NCBI GenBank assembly: GCA_034439715.1
Contig: JAWXAY010000086.1
Coordinates: forward strand, 1 to 26,805
DNA from: Pseudomonadota bacterium
GTDB lineage: Bacteria > Bdellovibrionota > Bdellovibrionia > Bdellovibrionales > SG-bin7
Length of the DNA stretch: 26,805 bases
Reading direction: 5' to 3'
Part shown: piece by piece, positions 1 to 10,524 of the stretch
Layout: each line of letters starts with the position of its first letter
Numbering within the stretch: the stretch's first letter is position 1
Notes under the pieces: generated by a model
The model's input: the letters and a program-made list of their open reading frames with translations, nothing else
Database searches by the model: none
Told to the model about the DNA's origin: nothing
Translations under genes and position numbers: made by a program

Positions 1-503
1 CCCTGCGACAGTAGGGCGCCCTGTTGCAAATTCCTAAGAGTTTTAACAAGAAAAAAATAACGCGAGCTTTGTTCGACACCGAGAGAATTCAAAGCTTGAA
101 CTACAATAGGGAGGGTATTACTGCCCTCAGTGGGAGTCACCTGAATCTGCAATAATTGTCCCAACGCAGCCTTTCCTAAAAAAATAGTAATTCCATGCAA
201 GGACTTTAACAAAAATGCAGCACGAGATTTTTTCTCCTCGGGATTACCACTATTCACCCAAGGGTTGGCGGCAATACTGTCTAAGAACATGAGACTCACT
301 GAGGCTGAACTACCGCCCGATTGAATTTGTGGAAGACCCATTTTTTCAACGAGATTGGCAAGCGCGCCCCAATGTGCCGGCTGCGCTTCACCGTTTCCCC
401 GGAGCGCCAAACAATAGGGCTCGGCATTGAGCTTTAAAGAAATCACAAATAATGTCACCAGAGTGACAATAAACCCTCTCGTAATCCTAATAGATTGACC
501 CAT
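1..503 (-). CDS. Secreted patatin-like lipid hydrolase (partial; runs off the left edge; not in the ORF track)
   Basis: Hand translation from ATG at 503 (GGAGGA SD at 511-516) is open to the window edge: MGQSIRITRGFIVTLVTLFVISLKLNA-EPYCLALRGNGEAQPAHWGALANLVEKMGLPQIQSGGSSAS... It has a signal peptide, a patatin-like oxyanion loop (LALRGNG..AHWGAL) and a GGSSA nucleophile elbow. Confidence 0.6.
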   Translation of the reverse strand, partial: MGQSIRITRGFIVTLVTLFVISLKLNAEPYCLALRGNGEAQPAHWGALANLVEKMGLPQIQSGGSSASVSLMFLDSIAANPWVNSGNPEEKKSRAAFLLKSLHGITIFLGKAALGQLLQIQVTPTEGSNTLPIVVQALNSLGVEQSSRYFFLVKTLRNLQQGALLSQ

Positions 504-587: not shown

Positions 588-2516
588 CTAAAGTTGAACA
601 TCCCTGCCAACGATGGGTGGAAATCCATTATAGGCGGGCAGAGCCTTCCAGTCCAATTTTGTGTGGGACACTTGGATGCCCAAGGCCTTTAGGTACTTTC
701 CGAGAGCAATCAGTGGAAATGTCGGCGCATAGAGTGAATACTGCATGGTTGTTAATCCCGGATGTCCTGTTGCTGTCACTGATTGATCGACCCAACGACC
801 ACGTTTTTTGAAATTCTCTGTGAGCCATTTAGCCGCTCGCTGGGCGACTTCCGTGTTGGCCAAGCCACATTCTACCAAAGTAATTAACACCCACGCGGTG
901 TGAGAGGGCGTGCTTTCTCCGCATCCCGCAAGATGAGCTTTAACATACGAAGCTGGCGTTTCACCAAAGCCACCATCAGAATTTTGTTTCGAGGTCATCC
1001 AACGAATAGCCCTTTGAATATACGGCGATCTCGCATCTTCGCCTGAAGCCAATAGCCCTTGCACGGCAACGGACGTGCCGAATAAATAGTTCTGAGCCCA
1101 ACGGCCCTTCCAGCCACCAAAATCTGCTTGATTCTTTTTAAGGTACAAAATCGCCTTTTGTGCAATGGGACTGTTATATTTATTATAGCCGCCAAAAGCC
1201 ATGGCCTCTAAGACATGTCCGGCACAATCGTTTGATGAATAATCGAATAGCGATTCTCGGTCTTTATAATTTCGCAAGAAAAAATTAAGCAAAAAATTAT
1301 TGCGATTGTTTTGATTAAATGCACCCCAGCCACCATCATCATTTTGTCTTTCCATAAGCCATCGTAATGAACGAAGAGCATTTTCACGGTAACGGCCACC
1401 GACTTTAAACCACAAGTCAGTTGCTGAGCAGGTATCATCGACATCGGGTTCGTTTATAAAACCCATGCCAAAGGGCATTCCACCGTTGGGCGCTTGTTCG
1501 TTCACTATAAAATCTAAGGAATCACTGAGCTCACTCGCCGTAAAACCAGTTTCTAAGAGTGCTGTTGAAGTTAATATTGTGTCCCAGTTCGTGCCATCAC
1601 AAGTAATGCCGGTGTAGGCTCCATTACTGGGATTTAAGTAAAGAGTTTTTAAAAAGCTTAGGCCTAATGAAACAGCGTTTTCAATTTTTGCTTTGTGACG
1701 AGAGGAATTTTCAGAAAAATGGGACATCGCTAAGAGTGAAAACACAGTCGACGTGGTATATCCGCCCCAACAGCCCACCGGATTTTGTAAGCGTACAATT
1801 TTATTTATAAGCCAGCCATCGAAAAATTTGTTTGGCTTTTTGCTTTCATTGGGAACTGGTTGGGGGTTTGGTTTTAATTCGTCCAACGAAAACGCGGAAC
1901 CCAAGTCTTTGCTCATGCGGAGACTTTGCATGTAGGCAAAGGGCATCATGTGAGGCCGTGACCACTGAGAAAAACGTTTATAGTTCATAGGCACGAAATC
2001 CATAAATGTGATGTAGGGAGTGGCTGGCACTTGGTCCCACGATACAATTCTAAAAAGTGCTAACAAAACGATTGTAAAAATCTCGGCGTTATCAAGACCC
2101 CCTTTATTGTGGATAAAGGTGCGGGCCCTTTTCATGGGCTCAGAATGTGGAGCTACGCCCAATACTTTAAGTGTCCAATAGGTAATGATTGAAACATTGA
2201 GCTCACCTTCGATAAAATTCGCATCTTTAAGTTGGACCCAACCACCATCTGACAGTTGACGACTTAAAAGCAGTTCTTTTAAATAATCTTTGTCAATTCC
2301 AGAGTCTTTAATATTCATCCACTCGCACGCCAAAAAATACTGGCAAACGAAAAATGGGCCAAGGTATGCTGGAAACTTCCAGAAGCCGCCTTCACGTCGA
2401 AGCTTGAGGAGATTCTCTTGCCCTAAATGAATTGTCTGAAGAATGGTATTTTGCGCTTCATCAGAAAGCACTTTATCTTTTTGAACTATTGTTTTGTTGT
2501 CCGTTTCTAAATTCAT
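588..2516 (-). CDS. Class II triterpene (squalene) cyclase, squalene-tetrahymanol-cyclase-like
   Basis: 642 aa. QW repeats (RQLSDGGW, RQNDDGGW, QADFGGW, KQNSDGGFGE), catalytic PDVDDT (DxDD), WDT, RWAQNY, STPSHTAW and a C-terminal Y-x-x-Y...FPLIAL. Cyclase family is firm; the STC subfamily call is less so. Confidence 0.93.
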   Translation of the reverse strand: MNLETDNKTIVQKDKVLSDEAQNTILQTIHLGQENLLKLRREGGFWKFPAYLGPFFVCQYFLACEWMNIKDSGIDKDYLKELLLSRQLSDGGWVQLKDANFIEGELNVSIITYWTLKVLGVAPHSEPMKRARTFIHNKGGLDNAEIFTIVLLALFRIVSWDQVPATPYITFMDFVPMNYKRFSQWSRPHMMPFAYMQSLRMSKDLGSAFSLDELKPNPQPVPNESKKPNKFFDGWLINKIVRLQNPVGCWGGYTTSTVFSLLAMSHFSENSSRHKAKIENAVSLGLSFLKTLYLNPSNGAYTGITCDGTNWDTILTSTALLETGFTASELSDSLDFIVNEQAPNGGMPFGMGFINEPDVDDTCSATDLWFKVGGRYRENALRSLRWLMERQNDDGGWGAFNQNNRNNFLLNFFLRNYKDRESLFDYSSNDCAGHVLEAMAFGGYNKYNSPIAQKAILYLKKNQADFGGWKGRWAQNYLFGTSVAVQGLLASGEDARSPYIQRAIRWMTSKQNSDGGFGETPASYVKAHLAGCGESTPSHTAWVLITLVECGLANTEVAQRAAKWLTENFKKRGRWVDQSVTATGHPGLTTMQYSLYAPTFPLIALGKYLKALGIQVSHTKLDWKALPAYNGFPPIVGRDVQL

Positions 2517-3838
2517 TGGGTATCTCTCTGAAATACTGGCCGGCCAAGTACTGTTGTGAGGCCTTTTCGACTAATGCCCCAAAGATCAAAAAGTTCTGCC
2601 AGGCCGGGTTTGTCTTTGTCTATTCCCGCAAATAATCGCATGACTCGATTAGGTAACTCAGGCGCTAGCTTCCAAGTGTTAGTGACGTGCCGCGTGGTCG
2701 TTTTAAACAGAGGAGCCCGAGCAAAAAACAAGTAATAGAGACCCAAATTAACTATATCGAGTCTCTCTTGAATGGCACGAGTTTTTTCGGCATAGGCCTT
2801 CTGGGAATCTTGAGTTGATTTGGCAAGCGAGGTCGAAAAATCAAACTCATCTATGAGGTAATCGACGTGCTCCATGCCAGCACTAATTCCTTGGCCGGCA
2901 TAGGGCGTGGTCGTCGCTACGGCATCGCCCGCCAGCAAAAAGTTTCCTCCAAAAGAAGGTCCGAACCACATCTGATAAGCAGGGCAACCTAAAATCGGCG
3001 CCTCTTCATCCAACTCTCCTAATTTTTCATGAGGTCTTACATCATTTATTATTTTCTTAATACTTTTTGCCCATTGATCTTTGCCTACGCCCGGTCGATC
3101 AAGCGAACTATAATAGAGCCGCTGGCCGATACCGGGGAGTTCAAATGCAAAAAGAGTTCCTTCGCCGTAACTGCGAAACACTTGATAGCAGCCTTTTACG
3201 GGAGATTTTGTTGCGATCTCGGCACCAATAATATGTTCAGGAGTGGCGCCTAATAAAATTCGGCGATTTTTTGGGGCCTCTGGTCCTTTCATCCAATTTC
3301 TGACTTGCGAAGTGCGGCCATCACAACCAATGACCCATTTGGGTCTGACAAGAGCCGTGCCCCGCTCAGGGTGCCTCAATTCAAATTCTGGGCGGATTAA
3401 AAAATCTCGCTCATTATGATTGAGTGGTACAAGATTCGCACCGAGCCAAAAATCCTCGCCGAGGGTCTCGTGCGCTTTTGCTCGTAATTCGTTGACTAAG
3501 GTGTCGTGGGTAAAAGTTTTGGCAGAATGTGAAGCGGGATATTCCATCATAATATCAGAAATAACTTCATTAGAATTTTTATCTAAGTCGCGAAACCTCA
3601 AATTATGGATTGAATCAAATGACGGCTTAGTAAAAATAGAACCGAGTCCTAATTTCTGGAGAGTGGCAACGGGTTGAGGCTGCATGTACTCGCCCTTAAA
3701 AACCCGCCTTACCTTAGCTGACCTCTCGACAAGTAGCACTTCGAGCCCTTTTTTCTTGAGGCCGATGGCAAGGGGACCGCCGATGACTCCAGCGCCCACT
3801 ACGACAACGTCAGGACACAGTATTTTGGTATAAGCCAT
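2513..3838 (-). CDS. FAD-dependent monooxygenase, squalene epoxidase-like (group A flavoprotein)
   Basis: 441 aa. GAGVIG Rossmann motif, ER...GEYMQP (squalene epoxidase has GEFLQP), CDGRTS (DG motif), LLAGDA...PYAGQG (GD motif) and C-terminal IVNLGLYYLF. ATGA overlap (2513-2516) with the cyclase start. Confidence 0.75.
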   Translation of the reverse strand: MAYTKILCPDVVVVGAGVIGGPLAIGLKKKGLEVLLVERSAKVRRVFKGEYMQPQPVATLQKLGLGSIFTKPSFDSIHNLRFRDLDKNSNEVISDIMMEYPASHSAKTFTHDTLVNELRAKAHETLGEDFWLGANLVPLNHNERDFLIRPEFELRHPERGTALVRPKWVIGCDGRTSQVRNWMKGPEAPKNRRILLGATPEHIIGAEIATKSPVKGCYQVFRSYGEGTLFAFELPGIGQRLYYSSLDRPGVGKDQWAKSIKKIINDVRPHEKLGELDEEAPILGCPAYQMWFGPSFGGNFLLAGDAVATTTPYAGQGISAGMEHVDYLIDEFDFSTSLAKSTQDSQKAYAEKTRAIQERLDIVNLGLYYLFFARAPLFKTTTRHVTNTWKLAPELPNRVMRLFAGIDKDKPGLAELFDLWGISRKGLTTVLGRPVFQRDTQ

Positions 3839-3925: not shown

Positions 3926-4702
3926 TTATAAAATTAGGCCCGTAAGGGTTTGCCATTCCCTAGGAGATAATAGATCTGAGCCAATTAGCAACACGGGGAC
4001 TTCATTAATATCATAGCGATTTTTCGGTTTATTGACTTCAGACGGTACCCAGCCCCTGGCCTTCGTTGTCTCTATCCATTGCTTTCTCAAATGCAGTGAG
4101 TTGCATATGAGAATGCACTCGTCTTTCTTTCGTTTTTTTCCTATGTGATTTTTTTCATACTCATAATGACTGACCACCCACGTGTTTCCCTGATTAACCT
4201 TTTTAATCTCTTGGGAGCCAATATTAACTGAGTATTTGTACTTCTTTTTTCCGGGTTCACGAAAGCTAAAGATCATATCTAAATTATTTTGGTTAAATTC
4301 TTCTTCAAGTTTTTCGAGTTCATAAACCTCCAGCTCTACCATTATCACTCCTGCGCCTTTAAATAGTTTTCGGCAAAATTCGCCTGCGATTAAGCCTAAA
4401 CCGTCTAAAGTTCCGATTCGCAAATGAGTGAGCATGCGATCTTCTTGCAAATGAATAATATCGAGTTCGAGTTTTCGCTCGGCGCTGGCATAAAGCTGGG
4501 CTAACTGAAAGGCGACGCTCATCCATCCTGACTTTCTTTTAGCTGTACGGTCCAAAATCACAATAGAAAGCTCATCCTCTACTTTCTTAACAATTCTCGA
4601 AAGTTGGGGCTGACTCATTCCAATGTTTTGGGCGGCAGAAGATAGGGTCGGAAAGTGAACCGCCCGACTAATCACACTAAGCTCCCAATGAATTTCTACC
4701 AT
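3926..4702 (-). CDS. LysR-family transcriptional regulator (short, divergent effector domain)
   Basis: N-terminal HTH TLSSAAQNIGMSQPQLSRIVKKVEDEL...LDRT, plus LRIGT. 258 aa; divergent from 4835..5299. Confidence 0.85.
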   Translation of the reverse strand: MVEIHWELSVISRAVHFPTLSSAAQNIGMSQPQLSRIVKKVEDELSIVILDRTAKRKSGWMSVAFQLAQLYASAERKLELDIIHLQEDRMLTHLRIGTLDGLGLIAGEFCRKLFKGAGVIMVELEVYELEKLEEEFNQNNLDMIFSFREPGKKKYKYSVNIGSQEIKKVNQGNTWVVSHYEYEKNHIGKKRKKDECILICNSLHLRKQWIETTKARGWVPSEVNKPKNRYDINEVPVLLIGSDLLSPREWQTLTGLIL

Positions 4703-5424: not shown

Positions 5425-5770
5425 GTTATCAAGCACATCTAAAGAGTATCAGGGCGTTCTTAAAAAAATCGCGAGTTTAAGAAAGTCCCCACAAGTTTTT
5501 TCTCTTTTGGCAGAGACCTTTCAGGCACTAGGTGATTACTCTCGGGTACAAATTTTGTGGGTTTTAACAAAAGGTGAACTCATGGTTGGGGATATCGCAG
5601 TCATGCTTTCTCTCAGCCAGCCAGTCGTTAGTCACCATTTACGAATGCTAAGAAATCTAAAGCTGGTACGCGCTAGACGACAAGGGCGCTCGGCCTATTA
5701 TTCATTGGATGATATTCACATCGAGCGACTACTTAATGAGGGCATTAAACATGTCGAAGAACTTATTTAG
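5423..5770 (+). CDS. ArsR/SmtB metalloregulator with alpha5-type metal site
   Basis: FQALGDYSRVQIL, SQPVVSHHLRMLR HTH and YYSLDDIHI...HVEE (D-x-H...H-x-x-E, SmtB/CzrA-like). Confidence 0.9.
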   Translation: MLSSTSKEYQGVLKKIASLRKSPQVFSLLAETFQALGDYSRVQILWVLTKGELMVGDIAVMLSLSQPVVSHHLRMLRNLKLVRARRQGRSAYYSLDDIHIERLLNEGIKHVEELI

Positions 5771-7532
5771 TTGGATACTTTTACTTTTTTTGAGTCTTGT
5801 TTTGGGGTCTCAAGCATCGGCGACTGCTAGTTCAGATAGTGAACAGGGGCGACTGATCGTACATATTCTAGACTATATCGCTAAGGATTACGGGGGAGCG
5901 GTTCAAGATAAAAAAATCTTAAATCAGTTTGAATATGATGAGCAAATAGAATTTGTGAAAGCGGCTAAAGAAAGCGTGCTGGCTCTTAAGATAGCGCCGA
6001 ATTTGAAAAAGGAAGTTCTGGATAGAGTAACGAGTCTCGCTCTCAAGATAGAAAACTTAGAGGACGAAAAAAGCGTGTCAACCCTCGCCTTTGACACCAA
6101 GGCACTGGCTGTTAAAATTTTCGCGCTACCCATCATTCCAGCAAGTGCCCCTGATCTTGCCAATGGCGCGCGTATATTTGCGGAGAAATGTGCTTCTTGC
6201 CACGGGGCAAGTGGCGATGGCAGCGGGGCAGCCGGCGCTGGGCTTATCCCCAAGCCCTCAAATTTTTTAGATGAAAATACCATGGAGTTCGCAACTCCCT
6301 TTTCGGCATTCAATAGCATCAGATTAGGAATCACTGGCACAGGAATGCAAGGCTTTAAAGATTTAAGCGATCAAAATGTATGGGACCTTTCGTACTATGT
6401 CGTATCTGTCCGATTCGCTGGAGCGGATTCCAGTTACAAATGGTTGGCGATGGCCACATGGTATTTATCTCAAGCTGAAAGTTACTATCAGTTAGGGGAT
6501 GCTCATTCAGCAAAGGCGATGGCAATTAAGGCCTATTTAGAGGGAATTGAGCCTGTAGAACCCAAAATTAAAGCAACTGATCCAAATCTTGTAGCTGAAA
6601 TTGAAGACGCCATGAACCAAGTGCGTGGCAGCATCAAAAACGCTGATAGCAAAGAACTCGTATCGAAAAAAACCTTGCTTGCCAAAGAGGTGATAGTAAA
6701 AATTCAGAAATCTTTTTCAGATCAAGAACTGACACCGGGAATGGCCTTTGCCTCTTCACTCGCAATCCTAGTGCGCGAGGGGTTTGAAGCTGTACTTATC
6801 GTTCTTGCATTATTATCCATTTTGCAAGCCGTGGGAGCTAAAAGGGCCTACATATGGGTGCATCTCGGTTGGGGTGCGGCATTAGTCTGTGGTCTTGGCC
6901 TTTGGTGGTTAACGGGGACCATTATAGATTTGGGCGGGGTGGGGCGTGAGAGTATGGAGGCCATTGCCTCTCTACTCGCAGTAGTTATTTTGCTGTACGT
7001 TGGTTTTTGGTTGCACAGTCAGACCGAAATTCATCGCTGGAAGGCCTTTATTCATAAGCGAACAAAAACCATTATGGAGCAGAAAAATCTTATCGGCATC
7101 GCACTAATTTCTTTTTTAGGTGTATTTAGAGAAGCCTTTGAAACGGTTTTATTTCTTCGCGCTCTTTGGCTTGAAGGCAACGAAAGTGCACGAGCCTCTA
7201 TAGTTGGCGGTGTAGCAACAGCTTTTGTGGTGGTGCTAGGACTCTCCTGGATTTTATTTAAGATGAGCCGAAAATTACCCATTAAAAAACTTTTTTTGGT
7301 CACCTCAAGCGTGATCGCGGTTTTGTCTGTGGCACTGGCTGGAAAATGCCTTCATGCCTTTCAAGAAACTGGCATGGTTTCGGTAACGGTTCTGCCATTT
7401 TCTTTTAGGTTCGAGATTTTGGGAATTTTTCCGACTTATGAAACAATGGCAGGACAGCTTTTGGTCGCGCTTCTGATTGTTGTCCTTTGGCTCTTGGGAA
7501 ATCGGGTTCCAGACCCAATTAAAGTAAAATAA
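5751..7532 (+). CDS. Cytochrome c / FTR1 iron-lead permease fusion (PbrT/EfeU-like)
   Basis: Start moved to ATG 5751 (signal peptide MSKNLFSWILLLFLSLVLGSQASA). HILDYIAKDYGGAV N-terminal motif, CASCH heme motif, REGFE and REAFE FTR1 motifs, multiple TM helices. Confidence 0.9.
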   Translation: MSKNLFSWILLLFLSLVLGSQASATASSDSEQGRLIVHILDYIAKDYGGAVQDKKILNQFEYDEQIEFVKAAKESVLALKIAPNLKKEVLDRVTSLALKIENLEDEKSVSTLAFDTKALAVKIFALPIIPASAPDLANGARIFAEKCASCHGASGDGSGAAGAGLIPKPSNFLDENTMEFATPFSAFNSIRLGITGTGMQGFKDLSDQNVWDLSYYVVSVRFAGADSSYKWLAMATWYLSQAESYYQLGDAHSAKAMAIKAYLEGIEPVEPKIKATDPNLVAEIEDAMNQVRGSIKNADSKELVSKKTLLAKEVIVKIQKSFSDQELTPGMAFASSLAILVREGFEAVLIVLALLSILQAVGAKRAYIWVHLGWGAALVCGLGLWWLTGTIIDLGGVGRESMEAIASLLAVVILLYVGFWLHSQTEIHRWKAFIHKRTKTIMEQKNLIGIALISFLGVFREAFETVLFLRALWLEGNESARASIVGGVATAFVVVLGLSWILFKMSRKLPIKKLFLVTSSVIAVLSVALAGKCLHAFQETGMVSVTVLPFSFRFEILGIFPTYETMAGQLLVALLIVVLWLLGNRVPDPIKVK

Positions 7533-7546
7533 CTCTAACAATTTCT

Positions 7547-9727
7547 TTAGGCTGCTTCGTGGGATTTTTTTATTTCAGTTAAAACTTGAACGAGTGAGAC
7601 GACTTCAAGTCGGAGGCGTTTAGAAATTTGCGCACATGTCTCGAAGTCCTGCTTTTTAGCGGAACGCTCGATTTCAAGCGCCATGCGAATAACAGAAGTC
7701 GCAATAAACGTCGAAGCGCGTTGCTTGATTATCTGAGCTGTTTGTTCCACTAGATCACTCTCTTTATCCAAAATATGCCCATCAAGTTTATCAAGCGTTG
7801 TATCTGACTCTTGGTTGAATGTATCGATTGAGCTATACAGGAGCTCTTTATCGCCACCGACAATTCGAAGCATTTGCACAAAATCTATGGTGAGATCGGT
7901 GCCCATTATGGGGGTGATAGCTTCATGATTCGTTACAAGTTCAGGACTACGACTTCTTTTGGGACAAGATTTGAGAGTTTTTACAAGGTCAGCAAGTCGA
8001 ATAGGTTTGCTTAGAAAATCATCCGTACCAGCGTCGTAGCATCGCCGTCGGTCTTCTTCCATTACATTTGCGGTCATTGCAATAATTCGCGGGCGATTTT
8101 GTTTTGTCCAAGTGTCACAAATAATTCTTGTGGCCTCTAAGCCAGAAAGTTCCGGCATTTGCATGTCCATGAGTACGACATCATATAATTTCTTTTTTAA
8201 AGCCTCGATAGCTTCGTATCCATTAGACGCCAAATCTGCTCGATAACCTAATTTTTTTAACAACCGCAGCATAAGGTGTTGATTGACACTGCTGTCTTCG
8301 GCAATCAGTATTTCCAATGGATTTTCTTCTTCCACTTTTGAGTAATCGTTATATAGAGGGGCTGACTGAATAAATGGGGCTGCAATCATGGCTGATTTGC
8401 TAGCAATCGTAAAGAAAAAAGTAGAACCATGGCCAAAACGACTTACAACCCAAATTTGTCCGCCCATCATTTCACTGAGTCGCTTGCTGATGGCAAGTCC
8501 CAGGCCTGAGCCGCCAAATTTTCGAGCCGTAGAGGCATCAATTTGGCTAAATGACTTAAACAATCGTTCAACGCGATTTTCTGGAATGCCAATACCTGAG
8601 TCTTCAATGGCAAACTGAATTATTGATTTTTCTCCCTGGTCTTGACCCTTTGAAACTACAACTCTGACAAAACCTTTATCCGTAAATTTAATAGAGTTAT
8701 TTATGAGATTTACCAAGATCTGTCGAAGGCGGGTAGCATCCCCATAAATTCCAAATGGTAAATTGTGGGAGAGCGAGTAACTTAATTTTAAGCCTCTCTC
8801 TTTGGCCTTAGGCTCTGAAATTATAAATGCAGACTCGAGGCATTGAGCCAGCTCAAAAGGTTGTTCCTCAAGATCTAGTTTGCCATTCTCAATTTTTGAA
8901 AAGTCCAGAATATCATTAATTGATGACAGCAGTCCTTCGGCCGAATCTCTGATAGACTCTGCCAATTTGTCGGAATCCTCATCAAGGTTATTGTCTAACA
9001 ATAATCCCGTCATGCCAATGATAACATTCATCGGGCTTCTGAGCTCGTGACTCATGTTTCCTAAAAACTGAGATTTTACTCTAGAGGCTTCAATTGCTTT
9101 TTCACGTGCAGTTTCGAGTTCAATTTTTTGTTGATTAATAAAAGCCGCCGTGCGTATTCGCGCAAGAATATCGAAGTTGATAATTCGGCCTAAAACTAAC
9201 ATGAGGAAGTAGAATATGAGAGTAAGTCCAAGGTTTGTAAAATACATTGGGCCTGCATTAAGCGCTAGTGCAACAAGCGGAGCTAATGTCATGAAGGTTA
9301 GGTTGAGGGCAAAGAATTTGTAAGTAGAAGTAAAGGTAACACAGGATTCTAGAGCTAAAAACAAGGTAGCCAGCAATGCAATGGCTCCGGGTGTACCCAG
9401 TCCATTCTCAGAAAATGTTGAGGACACAAACAATCCCCAAAGCAGGCTATTCAAAAAAACAATGCCGTAAAAAGAGAATCTCCATTTAAAGAAATTCTTT
9501 TGATTCACCCTCATAAAATAATATCCTAAAGAATATCTGGCAGTCGCCAAGAATAAGAGAGTCGCACCCCATATAAGGTGCTGATTGCTGAAGGTTCCAA
9601 ACGAAAGCGTTGCTAGGTTCAATGCCAAGAAAGCGAGAAAGAAATTAAAAGAGCCAATGCGTGAACGCCTTTGTAGTTCGCGATGAACCTGAATTTTCCA
9701 ATCAAGGTTGGCTTTGTTAAAAAACAT
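7547..9727 (-). CDS. Membrane hybrid sensor histidine kinase (TM-HisKA-HATPase-REC-degenerate Hpt)
   Basis: About 6 N-terminal TM segments, [10 protein letters not shown]-box, [25 protein letters not shown] motifs (AEDS, LMDMQMP, KP) and a helical Hpt-like tail. Confidence 0.93.
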
Positions 9728-9816
9728 CAAGTAACTGATCGGTAATTGCGGCCATATCGTGAGATAAATTAGACAAGGAAATTATATACTTAATTTAACT
9801 GGACTAGAAAATAGGT

Positions 9817-9840
9817 GAGGGCGGGTTTTCCCCCGCCCTC
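9817..9840 (-). terminator. Hairpin, probable terminator after the DUF4360-like gene
   Basis: GAGGGCGGG-TTTTCC-CCCGCCCTC, a 9-bp GC stem 20 nt past the stop at 9860. The U tract is weak. Confidence 0.6.
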
Positions 9841-9859
9841 GGCAATGATATTTGCGAAA

Positions 9860-10462
9860 CTACTGGCAACGTCTCCATTGAATGCTGAATACCAGTCCTG
9901 ACTTTACGTCGATTGTATCAACAGTGGCCATTGCGGTGTCCATGTTTCGATTAGTGCGAGCAAGAACACTCGAGTTAATTCTCAGGTTTGTGTCTGCTCC
10001 GCACGCAGACCAGACTATGGCATGGGCCTCGAGGTCATGAGTTAAGATGTAGTCGCCATCTTCTCCGCCTCTAAAAGACCTACCAAGGATAGGACCTTGA
10101 GCTCCAGCAAAAAAGTACTCAACTCTAAATTGGCCTTGTCCTCCGAAAGGAATGCTGCGAAAGCCCCTGTAGTCTACTTGAAATACCGAAATACTGTAGC
10201 CCTGCGGAATATGTACAGGCACGGCTACGTTACAAGACTTTCTGTCCAGAGACTTGCCAGTGCCGCCTCCAGCTTCGGCAACGTATTGGTCAAAGAGGAC
10301 ACTGAGACTTTTTTGGTCGGGACTGAGTGTTGTCGACACAGTTCCGCCGGGACAGCCACTTCCGCCATAGTCAGGATGCCCAATAGAAATATCATCAGCC
10401 ATAGCATTTAAGGACATGCTCACCAACATTGCTGATGTTAGTTTTAAAATATTAACTTTCAT
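9860..10462 (-). CDS. Secreted DUF4360-like protein
   Basis: Start moved to ATG 10462 (GGGGG SD, signal peptide). YGGSGCPGG, LSPD...LFDQY, RKSCN...PQGYS...DYRG, WSACG and terminal WRRC motifs. Confidence 0.85.
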   Translation of the reverse strand: MKVNILKLTSAMLVSMSLNAMADDISIGHPDYGGSGCPGGTVSTTLSPDQKSLSVLFDQYVAEAGGGTGKSLDRKSCNVAVPVHIPQGYSISVFQVDYRGFRSIPFGGQGQFRVEYFFAGAQGPILGRSFRGGEDGDYILTHDLEAHAIVWSACGADTNLRINSSVLARTNRNMDTAMATVDTIDVKSGLVFSIQWRRCQ

Positions 10463-10524
10463 CTTTCCCCCTTTTGTTTTTTTATGGGTCTCACTAATGT
10501 GACCCCCTCTGGTCATAGTTGAAT

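Follow-up and report, generated by a model that had tools for sequence, protein, structure and literature searches.

The gene at positions 588-2516 of contig JAWXAY010000086.1, a 26,805-nucleotide stretch of a Bdellovibrionota metagenome-assembled genome (MAG; GCA_034439715.1) referred to here as the window, encodes a class II triterpene cyclase that groups with the squalene-tetrahymanol cyclases (STCs) of eukaryotes and apart from the squalene-hopene cyclases (SHCs). Tree placements and topology testing support the protein as a bacterial member of an STC-type clade, distinct from the SHCs, in a lineage made up mainly of Bdellovibrionota and Phycisphaerae. The gene overlaps that of a squalene-epoxidase homologue, and this predicted coupling of a bacterial STC-type cyclase to an epoxidase is what is new here. 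On balance we lean towards a functional STC-clade cyclase which, coupled to this partner, would make a gammacerane-type alcohol via squalene/oxidosqualene.

The cyclase open reading frame (ORF) starts with ATG and encodes 642 residues with zero internal stops. Both Pfam cyclase domains are recognised, SQHop_cyclase_N (PF13249) at 154.4 bits and SQHop_cyclase_C (PF13243) at 232.8 bits, exceeding gathering thresholds of about 26 bits, and the protein also has the acid motif, the QW repeats and the fold of the SHC/oxidosqualene cyclase (OSC) superfamily. Four QxxxGxW repeats are canonical and two are degenerate. An AlphaFold2 model of the cyclase (predicted local distance difference test score 90.2, predicted template modelling score 0.91) is closest in fold to the SHC of Alicyclobacillus acidocaldarius (AaSHC; 2sqc, template modelling scores 0.81/0.84, 27% identity), and the same enzyme (1gsz, 254 bits) is the closest solved structure by sequence. 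The C-terminal tail of residues 613-642 is of low confidence and ends in ..PPIVGRDVQL; it is also present in Bacteriovoracia homologues (..PPVVTKEMQL) and is missing from the other cyclases of the same alignment.

Among the NCBIfam models, the best for the cyclase is TIGR04277, ‘tetrahymanol synthase’, which matches in a single stretch (residues 44-610) at 363.7 bits, a lead of 68 bits over the hopene cyclase model TIGR01507 (295.7 bits, cut-off 431.1). None of the three models TIGR04277, TIGR01507 and TIGR03463 reaches its cut-off with the query. The oxidosqualene cyclase model TIGR03463 gives 145.5 bits against a cut-off of 851, and the acid motif reads DVDDT, not DCTAE, which places the protein outside the OSCs. 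It also falls outside the SHCs, both by its sub-cut-off score and by Thr254-Thr255, His585 and Thr589 in place of Gln262-Pro263, Phe601 and Phe605. True SHCs score 620-988 bits on TIGR01507 and 195-256 on TIGR04277, a difference of 426-732 bits favouring the hopene model. The TIGR04277 model is centred on ciliates: the Tetrahymena enzyme reaches 1303.7 bits, and the STCs of Paratrimastix (467), Stygiella (426) and Barthelona (443) also stay under the cut-off of 500.

A homology search with the query returned as its first 25 proteins (P0002-P0026, 357-784 bits) mostly MAG-derived sequences, those named being Bacteriovoracia, Phycisphaerae, Bdellovibrio sp. and Pseudobdellovibrionaceae. Three named eukaryotic proteins followed at 324-336 bits and, after a gap, SHCs at 252 bits or less; identity to the named STCs is 32-33%. 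When the Paratrimastix STC was used as query, bacterial proteins such as that of ‘Bdellovibrionota bacterium FG-1’ (40% identity) ranked among or above the other eukaryotic STCs. A contig scan of GTDB genomes with a pattern common to all SHCs gave 2 STC-like loci among the 80 retained. Within our sample of 401 genomes of the phylum, 34 contain a cyclase match of any kind at E 1e-20 or better and 11 contain STC-like cyclases (G000, G236, G283, G377, G263, G205, G373, G299, G228, G181 and G365), those of G181 and G365 being found in pieces.

A FastTree phylogeny was built from 457 sequences, comprising fetched proteins of 520-820 residues and query-matching locus ORFs of 520-1100 residues with identical rows removed, aligned by MAFFT FFT-NS-2, with three ‘SHC-like’ proteins as the root. 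One clade of 125 (support 0.966, stem 0.42) unites the query with all 8 named eukaryotic sequences, and 327 SHC-type rows lie outside it. Inside this clade the eukaryotic sequences form a single subclade of 24 (0.999), and the query belongs to a clade of 27 rows (0.991) together with Bacteriovoracia and Phycisphaerae MAG proteins. For IQ-TREE (LG+G4), 58 rows were picked after the FastTree result had been seen, three DCTA-type cyclases among them. Ultrafast bootstrap and Shimodaira-Hasegawa-like approximate likelihood ratio test (SH-aLRT) values were 100/100 for the STC-type clade (41 rows), 100/99 for the eukaryotic subclade (10 rows) and 98/90 for the clade of the query (7 rows); the backbone inside the STC-type clade was without resolution, and the bootstrap values had yet to converge completely. 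Constraining the query trio to group with ten SHCs cost 196.9 log-likelihood units and was rejected by the approximately unbiased (AU) test (p-AU 0.0007).

Named sterol OSCs, whether eukaryotic or bacterial, are absent from the trees, where the Bdellovibrionota DCTA-type cyclases act as stand-ins for them; a TIGR03463 search for a canonical OSC in five Planctomycetota/Myxococcota genomes yielded nothing above the level of SHCs (259 bits at most). SqhC is represented by six second-type cyclases of class Bacilli, unnamed SqhC-type candidates, which fall on the SHC side when added (98), the STC-type clade keeping its SH-aLRT of 100. The initial annotation of this stretch had linked the gene to the STCs by its motifs and had proposed a maximum-likelihood tree as the check, naming a position inside the canonical SHCs or SqhC as the contrary outcome; that outcome did not occur, and the query groups with the eukaryotic STCs. 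Clade membership therefore stands. The position within the clade needs amending, however, to a bacterial sister or stem radiation outside the eukaryotic crown, with a TIGR04277 score below the cut-off.

In quick trees the eukaryotic clade adjoins that of the query (SH-aLRT 88-92). Monophyly of all 31 bacterial rows was not rejected (difference of 16.6 log-likelihood units, p-AU 0.187). Bacterial STC-like representatives number 97 against 24 of the eukaryotic clade, and the deepest branches are bacterial when the tree is rooted on SHCs. From these sequences, eukaryotic STCs may or may not have arisen within the bacterial radiation, a p-AU of 0.187 for bacterial monophyly being compatible with both. 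Records P0272 and P0277, from the rotifers Brachionus calyciflorus and B. plicatilis, are STC-clade proteins near Tetrahymena whose TIGR04277 scores, 571 and 586 bits, exceed the cut-off; they could represent ciliate contamination or transfer into rotifers.

All five motifs on which the initial annotation had relied are found in the ORF where it had placed them (Table 1). The Tetrahymena counterparts that it gave agree letter for letter with a Tetrahymena utriculariae homologue from the homology search (P0285; WYYPPYLG, AQWVYPHL, GAYTIST, AYHGSLDDGRWWDTIL and GTGHRGLLYLQY), and the proteins of Paratrimastix, Stygiella and Barthelona have near variants of these motifs. The same columns of the Alicyclobacillus SHC read WWGPLLSN, GSWARPTI, GGIQPPW, ..SISPVWDTGL and GTGFPGDFYLGY; the SPVWDT and GTGFP of SHCs are absent from the query, as had been noted. 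These resemblances are not due to chance, because the same substitutions split 121 STC-type from 327 SHC-type sequences.

Active-site residues were numbered by alignment to 1gsz and counted over 24 eukaryotic-clade, 97 bacterial STC-like and 327 SHC rows. The query keeps the equivalents of the catalytic residues D374, D376, D377, H451, W169, W312, W489, Y609 and Y612, with Tyr593 and Tyr596 as the conserved tyrosines at or near ATGHPGLTTMQY. The aspartates of the acid motif are conserved in all three groups (23-24 of 24, 95-97 of 97 and 325-327 of 327 rows, respectively). Substitutions shared with the STCs are E45Q, I261Y, Q262T, F601H, L607M and a non-aromatic residue at F605. Gln at the E45 position (Gln59 in the query) occurs in 16/24 eukaryotic-clade and 72/97 bacterial STC-like rows, where 302/327 SHCs have Glu or Asp. 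Tyr at I261 (Tyr253) is found in 24/24 and 87/97 rows; at Q262 (Thr254) all 24 eukaryotic-clade rows have Thr or Ser and 77/97 bacterial rows Thr. His at F601 (His585) is present in 22/24 and 85/97 rows, with Phe in 312 of the 327 SHCs, and Met at L607 (Met591) in 19/24 and 77/97. At F605 the query has Thr (Thr589) and both STC groups are aliphatic. In the available text of Takishita 2012 (PMC3317845), His at the Phe601 position is singled out as the character of STCs, and His585 provides it here. Within the 27-row clade of the query, the metagenomic protein P0145 (608 residues) is a natural DADCT variant in which, as in OSCs, Cys takes the place of the latter of the two paired aspartates; it also reads GTAQP instead of GTGHP.

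The gene order marks the cyclase as the distal gene of a predicted LysR - flavin monooxygenase - cyclase unit (Table 1). G283, the one other genome in the sample that belongs to the same family, also has a homologue of this LysR protein (261 bits) immediately upstream of its STC-like cyclase. Searched alone, the monooxygenase has human squalene monooxygenase (6c6n) as its best PDB match, at E 5e-9 and over the flavin adenine dinucleotide-binding part only. With a profile of 34 family members, 6c6n is the top PDB match at E 1.4e-31, covering positions 6-377 of 446 and scoring 112.9 bits versus 82.8 for the next structure, and Pfam SE (PF08491) is matched by 24 of the 34 members. The family is present in 7 of the 401 phylum genomes (G000, G283, G236, G181, G365, G073 and G359). 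In five of these carriers (G236, G181, G365, G073 and G359; loci L145, from G236, and L147, L148, L149 and L150) it adjoins a cyclase with a sterol-type VTDCTA acid motif. The G236 cluster (L145:4173-17106) contains SQS_PSY, GT2, cyclase, unknown, monooxygenase, unknown and ABC/FtsX/LolA-like genes. G283 (97% complete) carries the monooxygenase (50% identity) and one cyclase only, which is STC-like. We read the monooxygenase family as putative squalene epoxidases feeding cyclases, the STC-type one being fed here. As a separate observation, the DCTA clusters suggest a pathway through oxidosqualene, so far uncharacterised, that has lipid export of its own.

The eukaryotic STCs (EC 4.2.1.123; Tetrahymena THC1, Paratrimastix, Stygiella; TIGR04277) share with the query the 100/100 clade, the DxDD acid, the two-domain fold, Gln at the Glu45 position, Tyr-Thr at Ile261-Gln262, His at Phe601, Met at Leu607 and the motifs PxYLG, QWxxPH and GxYTxST. 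The query differs in its bacterial host, in the identity of 32-33%, in its place outside the eukaryotic crown and its sub-cut-off TIGR04277 score, in reading HP and not the common HR of the eukaryotic clade after the GTG position, and in Thr at Phe605 and Arg at Phe437. Its operon partner, a squalene-epoxidase homologue, is a further difference; Tetrahymena and Paramecium are described as without a squalene-epoxidation gene in the accessible part of Takishita 2012 (PMC3317845). The AaSHC (1gsz/2sqc; TIGR01507), although closest by sequence and fold and equipped with the same catalytic Asp/His/Tyr/Trp set, belongs to a separate clade from the query, which is without SPVWDT, GTGFP, Gln262-Pro263 and Phe601/Phe605. 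The DCTA-type (OSC-like) clusters of Bdellovibrionota have the same monooxygenase family adjoining (37-40% identity), but their cyclases read VTDCTA, score 60-132 bits to the query and lie on the other side of the tree, whereas the query keeps DVDDT. The shared monooxygenase neighbour suggests an epoxidase-cyclase pair working on squalene. Another bacterial way to the gammacerane skeleton is the route that Banta et al. reportedly described in 2015, in which an ordinary SHC is followed by a separate synthase, Ths. In contrast, the single STC-type cyclase here is predicted to form the six-membered E ring itself.

Starting from the observed integrity of the gene, its clade membership, signature residues and overlap, and from the link of the partner family to squalene epoxidase and to cyclases, we infer a substrate, a product and a physiological role for the cyclase. 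Squalene would come from a divergent Sqs-type synthase of the genome, for which the candidate is a 343-residue Sqs-type gene on contig C93 that adjoins a LolA-like gene; the strong SQS_PSY match in the genome is CrtB within a crt operon. The monooxygenase, with O2 and NAD(P)H, would convert squalene to 2,3-oxidosqualene, and Asp360 of DVDDT would protonate either this epoxide or squalene directly. The STC-type cavity (Gln59, Tyr253-Thr-Thr, His585, Thr589 and Met591) would then steer an all-chair cyclisation that ends in a six-membered E ring, and quenching of the cation by water would yield a gammacerane-type alcohol, namely tetrahymanol where squalene is the substrate and the 3-hydroxy form of tetrahymanol where oxidosqualene is. 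To judge from the gene pairing, 2,3-oxidosqualene is probably the starting material and a gammacerane-type alcohol probably the product, since the partner family matches squalene monooxygenase best and adjoins DCTA cyclases. With an epoxidase partner, a plain anaerobic conversion of squalene to tetrahymanol is less assured than the initial annotation assumed. According to the accessible text of a 2025 cyclase phylogeny in Molecular Biology and Evolution (PMC12414744), DxDD cyclases accept oxidosqualene and some act on oxidosqualene alone.

Several observations weigh against this proposal. The TIGR04277 score of the query lies below both the cut-off and the 426-467 bits of the named non-ciliate STCs. 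The query deviates from the STC consensus at Phe605 (Thr versus Leu/Ile/Val) and at Phe437 (Arg420 versus Ser), so the last ring could differ. The Sqs-type gene on C93 is weak on the squalene synthase model (79.5 bits versus a cut-off of 286.75), and the query monooxygenase has no Pfam SE match even at E 10. None of the nine other STC-like cyclases whose retrieved neighbourhoods were inspected has the monooxygenase next to it; the pairing is lineage-specific. Four more monooxygenase homologues and STC-like cyclases of the query's clade have equal-sized longest contigs (7719, 12320, 59311 and 146243 bp), which speaks for the proposal in suggesting co-location, but at most that and not adjacency. 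For every bacterial member of the STC clade, moreover, activity and product are predictions. Weakened acidity through the replacement of Tyr495 by Phe in the query's clade was considered and dropped; Tetrahymena has Met there.

The enzyme could instead be a plain O2-independent STC that turns squalene into tetrahymanol as in ciliates, the monooxygenase acting elsewhere or hydroxylating the finished triterpenoid. The placement in the STC clade, the STC signature residues and an intact DxDD acid suited to alkene protonation are as expected of such an enzyme, and so is the want of an adjacent monooxygenase in most bacterial STC-like cyclases examined; G181 and G365, furthermore, pair the monooxygenase with a DCTA-type cyclase and keep their STC-like cyclase elsewhere. 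Against it, the start of the cyclase and the stop of the epoxidase homologue share 4 bases, G283 has an epoxidase homologue and no second cyclase for it to serve, and the steady pairing of the family with cyclases suggests substrate supply and not tailoring. We therefore hold an O2-independent STC to be unlikely, while a protein that is STC-like by descent and makes another skeleton (hopanoid-like, tetracyclic or partly cyclised), or uses another polyprenoid substrate, seems to us less probable still. In that event clade membership would not predict gammacerane. The unusual ring D/E residues (Thr589 for Phe605, Arg420 for Phe437, and ATG for GTG before His585) and the limited identity to named STCs point in this direction, as does the lability of ring number and substrate described for the superfamily in the accessible part of PMC12414744. 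Yet the residues that separate STC from SHC over the 121 sequences are mostly kept (Gln59, Tyr253, Thr254, His585 and Met591), and both in length and in fold the protein corresponds to a complete triterpene cyclase with two domains.

That the gene is not native to a bacterium, either because eukaryotic DNA contaminates the bin or because a eukaryote recently passed the gene on, we regard as very improbable. Bacterial monophyly as sister to the eukaryotic clade was not rejected and so leaves room for it, and the direction of transfer is for this reason not readable from the tree alone; the preponderance of bacterial representatives and their deepest branches nevertheless run the other way. The window is dense in bacterial genes, including LysR, ArsR, a hybrid histidine kinase, DUF4360, an FTR1-cytochrome c fusion and an outer membrane protein beta-barrel. 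The start/stop overlap is operon-style, and G283 has the same order of cyclase, LysR, small ORF and FTR1/cytochrome c. The bin that holds the window (3.26 Mb in 111 contigs) is 95.7% complete with 0.93% contamination. The same DNA occurs in several metagenome assemblies, and a metagenome scan with the monooxygenase returned three 100%-identical copies of this organism's contig only. Gene content, synteny and MAG quality thus bear out the bacterial origin of the contig that the initial annotation implied.

In anaerobic eukaryotes tetrahymanol is accepted as the replacement for sterols, and gammacerane, its fossil, is taken to mark stratified waters. In the text available to us, Takishita 2012 (PMC3317845) could not identify a bacterial STC donor and found none of the public metagenomic datasets of the time to contain an STC gene; Santana-Molina 2020 (PMC7306690), the only paper in the literature searched to cover both STC and Bdellovibrio, placed STC loosely near Firmicute SHCs and mentioned Bdellovibrio for Sqs; and the 2025 phylogeny (PMC12414744) described STCs as ‘from microbial eukaryotes’. 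The query protein is a row (an MGnify entry) in the supplementary alignment of this last study, and a further row looks identical to the paralogue from contig C43; both lie in a block with named STCs and several bacterial proteins. This block also includes a protein of the cultured methanotroph Methylotetracoccus oryzae (WP_139558993) and one from a Bdellovibrionales bacterium (OFY99200). The query is not among the 14 metagenomic enzymes tested there, and neither a discussion nor an assay of it was found in the accessible parts of the study. Our literature search found nothing linking tetrahymanol with Bdellovibrionota or Bacteriovorax and no description of a bacterial STC clade.

A well-supported bacterial radiation with an STC active site offers concrete, expressible candidates for the question of the STC donor. 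If these bacteria make gammacerane-type lipids, the sources of the biomarker would extend beyond ciliates and SHC+Ths bacteria, and would include predatory Bdellovibrionota of microbial mats. It is a tentative and rather doubtful proposition that two things hold jointly, namely that the bacterial STC-like cyclases of Bdellovibrionota and Phycisphaerae are the kin and donor pool of eukaryotic STC, and that in the present lineage the enzyme belongs to an epoxidase-wired, O2-dependent route to 3-oxygenated gammacerane triterpenoids. Were both to hold, gammacerane would have a bacterial source so far overlooked, and ‘anaerobic’ eukaryotic STC may descend from enzymes handling both squalene and oxidosqualene. 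The epoxidase coupling would also be a natural test of how readily a DxDD cyclase switches between squalene and oxidosqualene, raised as open in the available text of the 2025 study (PMC12414744).

Table 1. Features of the window; residue numbers refer to the cyclase.
Feature	Position (nt)	Strand	Description
Cyclase (P0001)	588..2516	-	STC-clade class II triterpene cyclase, 642 aa
Catalytic acid motif, D358-V-D360-D361-T362 (DxDD)	1431..1445	-	Equivalent to AaSHC D374/D376/D377 by alignment to 1gsz
WKFPAYLG	2358-2381	-	Quoted motif, aa 46-53
SQWSRPHM	1947-1970	-	Quoted motif, aa 183-190
GGYTTST	1746-1766	-	Quoted motif, aa 251-257; Tyr253-Thr254-Thr255 replace SHC Ile261-Gln262-Pro263
AYTGITCDGTNWDTIL	1572-1619	-	Quoted motif, aa 300-315
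ATGHPGLTTMQY	738-773	-	Quoted motif, aa 582-593; His585 for SHC Phe601, Thr589 for Phe605, Met591 for Leu607
C-terminal tail	588-680		aa 613-642
ATGA overlap	2513..2516	-	4 bases common to monooxygenase stop and cyclase start (translational coupling)
Flavin monooxygenase (P0374)	2513..3838	-	Group A, 441 aa, Pfam FAD_binding_3, squalene-epoxidase relative
LysR-type helix-turn-helix regulator	3926..4702	-	258 aa, Pfam HTH_1, 87 nt upstream of monooxygenase
ORF without Pfam match	3-503	-	Begins 85 nt downstream of cyclase, runs off window
FTR1 iron permease	5709-7532	+	Fused to cytochrome c domain
Hybrid histidine kinase	7547-10516	-	Next to FTR1 fusion

The short ORF that follows the cyclase shares its strand and may be part of the cyclase transcript. 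The hybrid histidine kinase stands beside the FTR1 fusion along with a DUF4360 protein, and FTR1/cytochrome c, kinase and DUF4360 genes also flank the cyclase and monooxygenase in G283.

Two further cyclase homologues are encoded elsewhere in the genome. The C43 protein (L126:2041-3960, minus strand) is a paralogue of the STC superclade with 639 residues, the acid motif DCDDT, and GTGIP instead of GTGHP. The third homologue, on contig C94 (L003:448-2439, plus strand), is very distant, with 663 residues, the motif DLDDT and only 61.5 bits to the query, and resembles the ‘SHC-like’ group. The C43 gene lies in a same-strand run of four genes that begins with two unknown proteins, one of 395 residues and one of 383 residues containing a DDFSD..ED stretch, and goes on with the cyclase itself and an MFS transporter.

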